64,000 nt of DNA from an uncultured Candidatus Binatia bacterium (GTDB lineage Bacteria; Desulfobacterota; Binatia; DP-6): NCBI GenBank assembly GCA_964404165.1, contig CAYOIZ010000003.1, positions 116,940-180,939 of the forward strand. Reading direction: 5' to 3'. Below the pieces are notes generated by a model. The model was not told the DNA's origin. It saw only the letters and a program-made list of their open reading frames with translations, and ran no database searches. Position 1 is the first letter of the stretch, and every line of letters starts with the position of its first letter. Below, piece by piece: positions 5,617 through 21,458 of the stretch. The position numbers and the translations under genes are program-made.

Positions 5617-5994
5617 ATGGACCACCGCCACCACATCCTGCTGGTGGAGGATCACGACGACCTCCGTATGGCGGTCGCCGAGATGCTCCGACTCGAAGGC
5701 TACGAGGTCGTCGAGGCGTCGGACGGCCAGGAGGCGCTCGGTGCGCTGCGCGCAGGCCCCTCCCCGTGCGTCGTGCTCCTCGATCTCCACATGCCCGGCA
5801 CCTCGGGCCAGGAGTTCCGCGCGGCGCAACTACTCGACCGGCAGCTCGCGGGCGTGCCCGTCGTGGCGCTCTCGGGGCACGGCGGCATCGCGCAGAAGGC
5901 GCAGGCGATGCGGATGGCCGACTACATCCAGAAACCGATCGACCTCGACAAGCTGCTTTCCGTGCTCCGACGCGTCTGCCAGAAGGCTGCGTGA
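5617..5994 (+). CDS. single-domain response regulator (receiver only)
   Basis: Receiver-domain motifs (ILLVEDHDDLR, DLHMPG, QKP). Its stop overlaps the treZ GTG start (GTGA). Confidence 0.85.
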   Translation: MDHRHHILLVEDHDDLRMAVAEMLRLEGYEVVEASDGQEALGALRAGPSPCVVLLDLHMPGTSGQEFRAAQLLDRQLAGVPVVALSGHGGIAQKAQAMRMADYIQKPIDLDKLLSVLRRVCQKAA

Positions 5995-18683: not shown

Positions 18684-21458
18684 GTGAATTTCACCTATCG
18701 TCTCCAGCTCCACGCCCGCTTCGGCTTCGCCGCGGCGCGCGACGCGGTGCCGTACCTCCACGCCCTGGGCGTGACCCACTGCTATCTCTCACCCATCCTG
18801 CGCGCCGGTCCGGGGAGCACGCACGGCTACGACACCACCGACCACGCCATGCTCAATCCGGAGCTCGGCAGCGACGACGACTTCGCCGCCCTCGCCGCGA
18901 CGGCGGCGGCGCACGACATGGGGCTCGTCGTCGACATCGTCCCGAACCACATGAGCGCCGACGCCGCGGAGAACCGCTGGTGGCGTGACGTCCTGCGCCA
19001 CGGACGCGCGTCGCCGTGGGCCGACGCCTTCGACATCGACTGGGAGCCGGTGAAGGACGAGCTGCAGGGTCGCATCCTCCTCCCGGTGCTCGGGGCGCCA
19101 TACGGCGAGGTGCTCGAGCGCGGCGACCTCGCTCTGGTGCTCACCGACGGTGAGGCCTCGGTGCGCGGCCCGGGGATCGACGTGCCCATCGACCCGCGCG
19201 AGCTGCCCCGGGTGCTGGAGCACGACATCGAGTCGCTGCAGGCGCGGCTCGGCGACGACGACCCCGCCCTCCACGAGCTGCAGAGCATCATCACGGCGTT
19301 GCGGCACCTGCCGGCCCGCAGCGAGACCGACCCGACCCGCATGCGGGAGCGGCAGCGCGAGACCGACGTGACCCGCGAACGCCTGCGGCGCCTCCTGACC
19401 GACGCCCCCGCCGTGCGCACGCACGTGGACGCGGCAGTGGCTGCGCTGCGCGGCACCCCCGGCCGACCGGAGACGTTCGACGCGCTGCACGAGCTCCTCG
19501 AATCCCAGGCGTATCGGCTGGCGCACTGGCGTACCGCATCGCACGAGATCAACTATCGGCGGTTCTTCGACGTGAACGGGCTCGCCGGCCTTCGCATGGA
19601 GGTGCCGGCGGTGTTCGACGCCACGCACGCGCTCATCGGTCGCCTGGTCGCCGACGGACGGGTCGCGGGCGTGCGCATCGACCACATCGACGGCCTCTTC
19701 GATCCGGCCGCCTATCTGGAACGCCTGCGCCGTCACCTCGGCCCCGACGTCTGGCTCGCGGTGGAGAAGATCCTCGGCGCCGACGAGCAGCTGCCGCGCG
19801 ACTGGCCCGTCGCCGGCACCAGCGGATACGACTTCCTGAACGACCTGAGCGGCGTGTTCGTCGACGGCCGCAGCCGGCGCGCCCTGCTCCGCACCTGGCA
19901 GCGCTTCACACGGTCGCGCGCCGCGTTCGACGACGTCGTCCTCGCCAGCAAGCGGCACATCATGGACACCAACATGGCCAGCGAGCTGAACGTGCTGGCG
20001 CGGGCGCTGAACCGTCTGTCGGAACGCGACCGCCGGACCCGTGACTTCACGCTGAACGCGCTCCGCCAGGCGCTGCGCGAGGTCGTCGCGGCGTTCCCGG
20101 TCTACCGCACGTACGTGACCGAGCGCGGCGCGACGGCGACCGATCGCGCGGCGGTGGCCACCGCCGTGTCGCGCGCGCGGCGCCGCAATCCGACGTTCGA
20201 TCGCTCCCTGTTCGCGTTCCTCGAGGACGTGCTGCTGGCGTCGCCCGACGAGCCGGAGCGGCTCGCCGTCGCCATGAAGGTGCAGCAGTACACGGCGCCC
20301 GTGCAGGCGAAGGGTGTCGAGGACACGGCCTTCTACCGCTGGGCCCCCCTCGCGTCGCTGAACGAGGTCGGGGGCGATCCGGATCGGTTCGGCCTGGCAC
20401 CCGCCGACTTCCATGCCCGCAACGCGCGCCGCCACGTCGAGTGGCCGCAGGCGATGCTGGCGACGTCGACGCACGACACCAAGCGTGGCGAGGACGCGCG
20501 CGCGCGCCTGCACGCGCTCTCCGAGCTGCCGCGCGAGTGGAGCCGCCACCTCTCGGCGTGGGCGCGCACGAACGGCGCCAACCGCACCCGCCTCGACGAC
20601 GGTCCCGCCCCGGCCCGCGCCGACGAGTACCTCGTCTATCAGACGCTGCTCGGCATCTGGCCGGCGGGGGCCGTGGCGGTGCCCGACGGCTTCGTCGAGC
20701 GCGTGCGCGAGTACCTCCTGAAGGCGGTGCGCGAGGCCAAGGTGCACACGAGCTGGACCGTCGCCGACGAGGCCTACGAGGCCGCGCTCGTGCGCTTCGT
20801 CGAGCGCACGCTCACGGGGCCGACGTCGACGCGGTTCCTCGCCCAGTTCCTGCCGTTCGCGGCCACCGTCGCGCGCCTCGGCATGGTGACGTCGCTGGCG
20901 CAGGTGGTGCTGAAGCTCGTCGGCCCGGGCGTGCCCGACGTCTACCAGGGCACGGAGCTGTGGGACCTGACGCTGGTCGATCCCGACAACCGCCGCCCCG
21001 TCGACTTCGCGCAGCGCCGGCACGACCTGGAGGCGCTCGACGCCGCCGGCCCCGGCGTGATCCGCGAGCTCGTCGCGAGCTGGCCCGACGGCCGCATCAA
21101 GCTCGCCGTCACCGCGCGTGCCGGTCGGCTGCGCCGCGATGCCGCCGCGCTCTTCCTCGACGGCACGTACGAGCCGCTCGCGGTCACCGGCGCGCAGGCC
21201 GACCACGTCGTCGCCCTGGCACGGCGTCTCGGCGACGAGACCGTCGTCGCCATCGTGCCGCGACTCGTCGCCGGGCTCACGAGCGACGAGCACCCGCTGC
21301 CGCTCGGGCCGGAGGCGTGGGGCGACACGCGGGTCGGCACCGGCGCCCTCGCCCTGCGCGACGTCCTGAGCGGCGCCACGCACGATGTCGGTGCCGACGG
21401 CCTCCGCGTGGCCGACGTCCTGGTCGACTGTCCGGTGGCGCTGCTCTACACGCGCTGA
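18684..21458 (+). CDS. treY: malto-oligosyltrehalose synthase (GH13)
   Basis: TreY N-terminus (VNFTYRLQLHARFGF...YLHALGVTHCYLSPIL...GYD) and the expected ~920-aa length. GTG start. Confidence 0.9.
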   Translation: MNFTYRLQLHARFGFAAARDAVPYLHALGVTHCYLSPILRAGPGSTHGYDTTDHAMLNPELGSDDDFAALAATAAAHDMGLVVDIVPNHMSADAAENRWWRDVLRHGRASPWADAFDIDWEPVKDELQGRILLPVLGAPYGEVLERGDLALVLTDGEASVRGPGIDVPIDPRELPRVLEHDIESLQARLGDDDPALHELQSIITALRHLPARSETDPTRMRERQRETDVTRERLRRLLTDAPAVRTHVDAAVAALRGTPGRPETFDALHELLESQAYRLAHWRTASHEINYRRFFDVNGLAGLRMEVPAVFDATHALIGRLVADGRVAGVRIDHIDGLFDPAAYLERLRRHLGPDVWLAVEKILGADEQLPRDWPVAGTSGYDFLNDLSGVFVDGRSRRALLRTWQRFTRSRAAFDDVVLASKRHIMDTNMASELNVLARALNRLSERDRRTRDFTLNALRQALREVVAAFPVYRTYVTERGATATDRAAVATAVSRARRRNPTFDRSLFAFLEDVLLASPDEPERLAVAMKVQQYTAPVQAKGVEDTAFYRWAPLASLNEVGGDPDRFGLAPADFHARNARRHVEWPQAMLATSTHDTKRGEDARARLHALSELPREWSRHLSAWARTNGANRTRLDDGPAPARADEYLVYQTLLGIWPAGAVAVPDGFVERVREYLLKAVREAKVHTSWTVADEAYEAALVRFVERTLTGPTSTRFLAQFLPFAATVARLGMVTSLAQVVLKLVGPGVPDVYQGTELWDLTLVDPDNRRPVDFAQRRHDLEALDAAGPGVIRELVASWPDGRIKLAVTARAGRLRRDAAALFLDGTYEPLAVTGAQADHVVALARRLGDETVVAIVPRLVAGLTSDEHPLPLGPEAWGDTRVGTGALALRDVLSGATHDVGADGLRVADVLVDCPVALLYTR

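Follow-up and report, generated by a model that had tools for sequence, protein, structure and literature searches.

The locus analysed here raises the question of what two receivers without an output domain do beside the genes of a divided trehalose pathway. It lies in a 64-kb stretch of DNA from an uncultured Candidatus Binatia bacterium (contig CAYOIZ010000003.1), and this whole stretch is referred to as the window. The gene of malto-oligosyltrehalose trehalohydrolase (treZ, 5991–7859, + strand) follows a single-domain receiver gene (RR1, 5617–5994, +), and the gene of malto-oligosyltrehalose synthase (treY, 18684–21458, +) lies downstream of a second one (RR2, 17951–18343, +). The initial annotation regarded this as a duplicated module in which orphan receivers regulate trehalose synthesis. 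A different explanation appears fairly probable from sequence and its conservation: the genes would belong to a stress island with much sigma-54 transcription, in which RR1, treZ and the following gene of a GH133-type amylo-alpha-1,6-glucosidase (gde, 7856–9925, +) form one operon, RR2 is under a similarly built promoter of its own and treY is separate, the receivers being members of the regulon and not dedicated trehalose switches.

Sigma-54-type promoters of the island

The window has a GC content of approximately 70%, and its reading frames were selected by third-position GC; gene identities were assigned by Pfam and NCBIfam profile searches of the encoded proteins. The GTG start codon of treZ overlaps the RR1 stop codon as GTGA and the ATG of gde at 7856 overlaps the treZ stop codon as ATGA, both as initially annotated. 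Because the coding regions overlap, RR1 should be co-transcribed with treZ and gde, and the overlaps leave no space for a further promoter within the three genes. Upstream of them a single promoter is recognisable, a sigma-54-type −24/−12 sequence, TGGCACGCATTTCGCT (5590..5605, +), located 11 nucleotides (nt) before the RR1 ATG. The three genes are probably a single sigma-54 operon read from this promoter in the gap between the preceding histidine kinase gene and RR1, and the transcript probably starts at or beside the RR1 ATG.

The consensus of sigma-54 promoters is TGGCACG-N4-TTGCW, with GG at −24 and GC at −12 (PMC2725144). The promoters were first noticed by reading the intergenic regions, and the window was then examined with a consensus scan, shuffled sequences and a weighted scan. 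With at most one mismatch to the consensus, 4 matches were present against 0.46 expected, and none of 100 shuffles reached this number. The five best sites of the weighted scan all lie 9–23 nt before a start codon and face it. In addition to the RR1 promoter, they are CGGCACGCAAGCTGCA (2..17, +), 20 nt before orf37; TGGCACGCGAATCGCT (10995..11010, +), 9 nt before the DUF748 ATG; TGGCACGCGTCGTGCT (14206..14221, −), before the operon of a small secreted open reading frame (ORF) and Ku; and CGGCACGCGAGGTGCA (17741..17756, −), 11 nt before the DUF2795 ATG. The site that ranks next is the RR2 promoter, GGGCATGCATCGTGCA (17860..17875, +), which is 75 nt before the RR2 start. The stretch 17864–17950 is a remnant of a 3D-domain gene that is intact between the sigma-54-type promoter and RR2 in three related loci (L164, L003, and L172; related loci are given L numbers throughout); a deletion of ~330 bp in the window has left a leader of 65–75 nt before RR2.

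Orthologous promoters are kept in L002, L003, L173, L167, L162, L164, L168, L169, and L172 between spacers that diverge. All 16 nt of the RR1 promoter recur unchanged in L002, L003, and L173 within diverged surrounding spacer, and the counterpart in L167 is TGGCACGAGCTTCGCT. The DUF748 promoter is kept in L002, L003, and L167, and that of the small ORF–Ku operon in L002 and L003, the Ku gene of L167 also having one. Counterparts of the RR2 promoter are GGGCACGCGGCATGCA in L003 and CGGCACGCATCATGCT in L162.

A second conserved feature accompanies the promoters. The element TTCTACAAA (5534..5542, +) is located 47 nt before the −24 element of the RR1 promoter and is invariant in the alignment while the spacer diverges, which makes it a candidate enhancer or bending-protein site. 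The corresponding element TTTGTAGA (17804..17811, +) is common to the divergent DUF2795 promoter (47 nt away) and the RR2 promoter (48 nt away), and it is kept before the RR2 orthologues in L164, L003, L162, L163, and L172. Each receiver promoter thus has a conserved element, TTsTAsAA or T[CG]T[AG][CG]A[AC], at a fixed 47–50 nt from its −24 element. The orf37 promoter site is identical in L002 and L003, with TTCTACAAA or TGTACAA 60 nt upstream. In the 64 kb, TTTGTAGA occurs only twice, once before each receiver, against 0.09 expected; when one mismatch was allowed, there were 6 matches against 3.1 expected and no further intergenic sites. Orthologues in eight or more other genomic contexts have the same architecture of promoter plus element. 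A comparison of the element by eye with consensus sites of IHF, NifA, and GlrR gave no fit.

The ATG codons of RR1, DUF748, and DUF2795 are located only 9–11 nt past the −12 element (5606–5619, 11011–11022, and 17727–17740, respectively), and their transcripts may consequently be leaderless or nearly so. Relatives with an inserted small ORF have a Shine-Dalgarno sequence instead. Two inverted copies of TGGCACG, 21 bp apart, are present between the divergent genes of topoisomerase IB (TopIB) and DUF748 (10958–11010), and the copy facing DUF748 makes a good sigma-54-type promoter sequence.

A protein with REC, Sigma54_activat, and HTH_8 domains is encoded beside the island in both L002 and L003, the latter copy being 90% identical. 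In these loci its gene is divergent beside orf37, a position corresponding to just past the left end of the window, and the island of L167 contains a 60%-identical sigma-54 activator. In L002 (2205–4245, −), the activator gene is preceded by an ORF of 233 amino acids (aa) that has an H-box like that of kinases and matches no Pfam family, and the two may constitute a dedicated two-component pair of the island.

Partial matches to −24/−12 sequences are common in GC-rich DNA, as shown by the 13 matches at up to two mismatches against 8.2 expected, and strict adjacency of receiver and tre genes is limited to genomes with TreZ identities of 63–90%. The motifs might accordingly not be working promoters, in which case the island genes would have no shared control and the adjacency would be plain synteny of close relatives. 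We consider this unlikely in view of the enrichment at up to one mismatch, the placement of every top site 9–23 nt before a start codon in the correct orientation, the conservation across divergent spacers and in unrelated contexts, and the presence of a sigma-54 activator gene within the island or next to it in three genomes.

The two receivers

PF00072 covers residues 7–117 of the 125 in RR1 and residues 8–117 of the 130 in RR2. The two proteins are 44% identical over 119 aa (E 2e-32), compared with 34% identity or less to the other three receiver domains of the window, and they fall in sister clades with a common FRAxQL signature on helix 3. The initial view that they are paralogous was therefore correct. 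Reading of the sequences identified the acidic pair (E11/D12 in RR1 and E12/D13 in RR2), the phospho-acceptor aspartate (D56 and D57), and the conserved positions S86 and K106 in RR1 and S87 and K107 in RR2. Both proteins thus have intact phospho-acceptor residues and no output domain.

RR2 has no adjacent kinase. The term orphan receiver, used in the initial annotation, does not suit RR1, which follows a hybrid histidine kinase gene (3641–5527, +) with the domain order DUF4118-PAS-HisKA-HATPase-REC. This kinase gene is kept upstream of RR1 in L002, L003, and L173. Its start is probably the GTG at 3641. A longer ORF from 3437 would overlap the 3′ end of the preceding YflT-like gene by ~100 nt, and the stretch 3437–3640 has, in the kinase frame, a poor GC content at third codon positions (GC3, 0.69) and a higher one at second positions (0.82). 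The amino acid conservation of this stretch in L003 is only apparent because of the overlapping YflT-like gene, which makes 3641 the likelier start. RNA folding of the gap between the kinase gene and RR1 showed no unusual structure (z = 0.38).

In the initial model, a receiver–tre module was duplicated, and the orphan receivers relay kinase signals specifically to trehalose synthesis, each controlling its half of the pathway. RR1 does overlap treZ, and both receivers are near tre genes in the window, L002/L164, L003, L172, and L173. However, treY and treZ are not paralogues, and consequently no module was duplicated. The duplication of the receivers itself predates their linkage with tre genes, because both clades hold members of 61–69% identity in contexts without tre genes. 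The RR2 orthologue at 69% (L162) is flanked by glutathione S-transferase (GST) and thiol-redox genes. The orthologue of the RR1 clade at 61% (L167) is in another stress island with YtxH, LigD, Ku, SodC, DUF748, BON, YflT, and the sigma-54 activator and without tre genes, and the orthologues at 62–64% (L168–L171) are among unrelated genes.

The genes that follow RR1 also vary. In L003 a hemerythrin gene is located between RR1 and treZ, and in L173 a DNA ligase gene, a 73-aa ORF, and a hemerythrin gene intervene. The overlap of RR1 with treZ is confined to the lineage of the window and L002 and is not a conserved arrangement, and adjacency of receivers to tre genes is found only in the closest Binatia genomes, contrary to the wider conservation that the duplicated module called for. 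In L173 (1245–4473) and L003 (8163–10001), a lysine-rich 60-aa ORF precedes RR1, and the 73-aa ORF and hemerythrin gene are found before treZ, each with its own sigma-54-type promoter; the ligase gene of L173, of the ATP-dependent type, has a start overlapping RR1.

RR2 is not immediately before treY, as had been stated. The gap of 340 bp holds an ORF of 80 aa on the opposite strand (18363–18605, −; GC3 0.83) with an AGGAGG Shine-Dalgarno sequence and a signal-peptide-like N-terminus. This ORF was independently called as a gene in L164, L165, L166, and L172, and its amino acid identity is 79% in L002 and 47% in L172.

Surveys of treZ and treY loci led in the same direction. Of 72 treZ loci, 5 have a receiver domain whose end is no more than 600 bp upstream of treZ, in four different architectures, which is only marginally above the background of ~2.6% of genes carrying a receiver overall; within 600 bp upstream of treY, none was present in 67 loci. 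Some weight remains with the duplicated module, since a lineage with (glgX)–receiver–kinase–treY operons exists independently. In this other lineage (L099 1188–6220, L100 7917–13021, and L110 513–5718), with TreY 48–49% identical and a GC content of ~0.71, a single-domain receiver of 128 aa and a HAMP sensor kinase are encoded in a string with treY, in which the kinase and treY coding regions overlap, and L110 has a GlgX-like fragment 5′ of the receiver. These loci are an independent case of two-component genes inside a tre operon. Even so, a duplicated regulatory module is quite unlikely in the window, where an opposite-strand gene is conserved between RR2 and treY and the receivers lack an output domain. 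A protein with only a receiver domain cannot activate transcription by itself, and the sequence points instead to sigma-54 promoters and an NtrC-type activator. The position of the receivers beside treZ and treY probably reflects how this lineage packed its island.

It is highly improbable that RR1 is a post-translational partner whose phosphorylated form binds and tunes TreZ or the GH133 enzyme in a stoichiometry set by translational coupling, for although the RR1, treZ, and gde coding regions overlap, single-domain receivers such as CheY, DivK, and CpdR act through protein contacts and FRAxQL is a subfamily-specific surface motif on helix 3, the motif is also present in RR2 and in orthologues without a neighbouring tre gene, and L003 and L173 lack the coupling.

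The treZ–GH133 pair

TreZ scored 626.4 bits on TIGR02402 (cut-off 538.8) and has the Pfam domains CBM_48, Alpha-amylase, and DUF3459, that is, a CBM48-GH13-DUF3459 architecture. TreY scored 999.9 bits on TIGR02401 (cut-off 498.65) with residues 3–922 aligned. The 689-aa product of gde consists of GDE_N and GDE_C domains (PF12439, 156.7 bits, and PF06202, 393.9 bits) and barely exceeded the cut-off of TIGR01561 (369.1 against 364.15). In a sequence search of solved structures, it matched only the glucosidase domain of yeast and mammalian glycogen debranching enzymes (GDEs; E 4e-20 to 6e-18), and no stand-alone prokaryotic GH133 homologue was found there.

The separation of treY from treZ and the use of a GH133 enzyme instead of GlgX had both been taken as distinctive. 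In the window, treY and treZ are indeed not contiguous and the cluster has no GH13 enzyme of the GlgX/TreX type, which sets it apart from a canonical treXYZ cluster; no GlgX-like match was found anywhere in the 64 kb. We surveyed the layout at 80 TreZ-anchored loci from GTDB species representatives, which span Acidobacteriota, Planctomycetota, Verrucomicrobiota, Alphaproteobacteria (Azospirillum), Myxococcota (Sorangium), Bacteroidota, and one Methanotrichaceae archaeon. In 61 of the 72 loci with enough sequence beyond treZ, the gene directly downstream of it, on the same strand, encodes a GH133 enzyme, and treY is within 10 kb of treZ in just 4 of the 34 fully flanked loci. By these counts, a split pathway with a GH133-linked treZ is what this treZ clade normally shows, and neither feature is distinctive. 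Among treY-anchored metagenome loci, a treZ of a different clade (41–50% identity) is adjacent in 13 of 33.

Neighbours of treZ were determined by six-frame clustering, which is noisy in high-GC DNA, and only the clusters of GlgX, MalQ, and TreS were retained; all three were checked with NCBIfam, and GlgX and MalQ also by tblastn. Of the 80 treZ loci, 19 carry a GlgX-type gene, and 16 of these have GH133 as well. As the two coexist in these 16 loci, GH133 looks like an additional activity beside GlgX rather than its substitute. In L031 (6216–9953), a fusion of GlgX and 4-alpha-glucanotransferase (MalQ) is encoded directly 5′ of treZ–GH133, and L029 and L012 have MalQ-like matches as well. GH133 together with a transferase of the L031 type represents both activities of the eukaryotic debranching enzyme on separate genes. 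A literature search for GH133 with treZ gave no prior description of the pairing; a review discusses GH133 in archaea, and the passages searched in it do not mention a bacterial pairing with treZ (PMC11046441).

The island and the remainder of the window

The first 22.8 kb of the window is a stress and dormancy protection island with genes for membrane stress proteins, CsbD, BON, SRPBCC, Ku, topoisomerase IB, superoxide dismutase (SOD), Bcp, and trehalose synthesis. Its first gene, orf37 (37–462), heads a stress run of holin-X-like, YtxH, SRPBCC, CsbD (2388–2582), BON, and YflT-like genes. Of the stress genes initially listed upstream of RR1, YtxH, BON, and CsbD were recovered, with SRPBCC and holin-X-like genes in addition, while the YflT match was below the Pfam cut-off.

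The interval between gde and treY is 8.8 kb and contains eleven called genes or ORFs on both strands, encoding, among others, topoisomerase IB, DUF748, BON, Ku, a beta-helix protein, an iron superoxide dismutase (Fe-SOD), an XRE regulator, and DUF2795. They include the DUF748–BON operon (DUF748 11020–12594 and BON 12604–13035, +), the operon of the small secreted ORF (13890–14183, −) and Ku (13042–13890, −), and the gene of the Pfam family DUF2795 (17514–17729, −). Downstream of treY are genes for an FAA hydrolase and then a Bcp peroxiredoxin. The nearest relatives of TreZ are from metagenome-assembled genomes (MAGs) of Candidatus Binatia (90% and 76% identity), not from Myxococcota, and the contigs of both MAGs are syntenic with the window over the whole island.

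A 970-aa cysteine-rich repeat protein is encoded at 23439–26348. The remainder of the window (within 28727–36374, 37300–38793, 59359–61785, and 61888–63948) contains an AddAB-like helicase-nuclease pair, a wax-ester synthase (WS/DGAT), a proton-pumping pyrophosphatase, and a second kinase-like ORF with two receiver-like regions.

Proposed mechanism and comparison with known systems

In the mechanism that we propose for the sigma-54 island, a stress signal would reach an NtrC-type enhancer-binding protein, which would activate the island promoters and may act through the conserved TTsTAsAA candidate element. TreY and TreZ would then produce trehalose from the alpha-glucan chains of a stored glucan, with the GH133 enzyme helping by clearing alpha-1,6 branch stubs. 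RR1 and RR2 would be co-induced and would most likely modulate the flow of phosphate from the hybrid kinase(s) as a sink or connector, without switching the trehalose genes directly.

Several points weigh against this explanation. The window contains no activator gene (AAA+ Sigma54_activat), and from the synteny with L002 and L003 we infer that the source genome carries one. The promoter of RR2 departs from the consensus at three positions. Before treY no sigma-54-type promoter was found, the best candidate having six mismatches, and co-induction of the whole pathway is for this reason only a possibility. A sigma-70-type promoter was not recognised upstream of treY either, and scans of 3300–11100 and 16000–18800 for sigma-70 promoters and intrinsic terminators gave nothing above chance. 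A possible TopIB promoter (10958–10973) was set aside as doubtful, with GT instead of GC at −12 and an overlap with the ATG. The role of the receivers as a sink or connector is speculation by analogy with MrrA of Caulobacter (PMC5964349), and a literature search gave no report of a characterised bacterial GH133 enzyme or its substrate.

Taken together, the observations of the initial annotation were largely right and its interpretation is partly supported; the case cautions that regulation should not be read from gene adjacency alone. A wider proposal is tentative. Binatia may run a general stress or desiccation response through sigma-54, with one NtrC-type activator, a TTsTAsAA enhancer ~50 bp upstream of the promoters, partly leaderless operons for Ku-type DNA repair, membrane stress, and treZ–GH133, and Binatia-specific FRAxQL receivers as feedback. 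Separately, treZ–GH133 may form a module of two genes that has not been described, occurs in many phyla, and makes trehalose from branched glucan. Binatia are abundant uncultured soil bacteria, and literature searches gave nothing on their gene regulation, no report on Binatia with trehalose, and, in a search for sigma-54 with trehalose and desiccation, none of a trehalose or stress island under sigma-54 control. If the explanation by sigma-54 is true, a regulon defined by promoter, upstream element, and activator would provide a testable handle on the survival of drying and oxidative stress, and a stress-protection island would be added to the known sigma-54 repertoire. The treZ–GH133 pairing points to an uncharacterised role of bacterial GH133 in trehalose production.

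The island can be compared with regulons of sigma-54 and an enhancer-binding protein, the Psp response being a further example of these. The likeness to such regulons as that of Geobacter RpoN consists in the GG at −24 and the GC at −12 with canonical spacing, in a conserved element that keeps a constant distance upstream of them and, in the relatives, in an NtrC-type activator encoded close by (PMC2725144). The window differs in its cargo, which is a general-stress, desiccation-type set (Ku, BON, CsbD, DUF2795, and trehalose genes), and in several start codons so close to the −12 element that leaderless transcripts are suggested.

The receivers resemble MrrA of Caulobacter (PMC5964349) and SdrG of Sphingomonas, which are also receiver-only proteins tied to the general stress response and are phosphate hubs or connectors, not transcription factors. 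The relation of RR1 and RR2 to them goes no further than the receiver fold, and the role of hub or sink is one that we infer for the window proteins. The MrrA and SdrG systems run through PhyR-NepR-EcfG, whereas the output in the window appears to be sigma-54 with its activator.

The enzymes are comparable with the TreX-TreY-TreZ (GlgX-TreY-TreZ) pathway of Sulfolobus, actinobacteria, and rhizobia, which is reviewed in PMC11046441. Both TreY and TreZ are clear equivalogs, treZ is accompanied by the gene of a debranching-type enzyme, and the same chemistry is expected, in which the reducing-end linkage is isomerised and trehalose is then released. In contrast to that pathway, the genes of the window are not contiguous and the one coupled to treZ encodes a GH133 amylo-1,6-glucosidase, not a GH13 GlgX. 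This protein is similar to the glucosidase domain of the eukaryotic GDE, a combination of GH13 transferase and GH133 glucosidase, and also matches TIGR01561, a profile of archaeal-type glycogen debranching enzymes; archaeal GH133 enzymes are treated in the same review (PMC11046441). Unlike the eukaryotic GDE, the GH133 protein of the window is a stand-alone enzyme without the transferase half.

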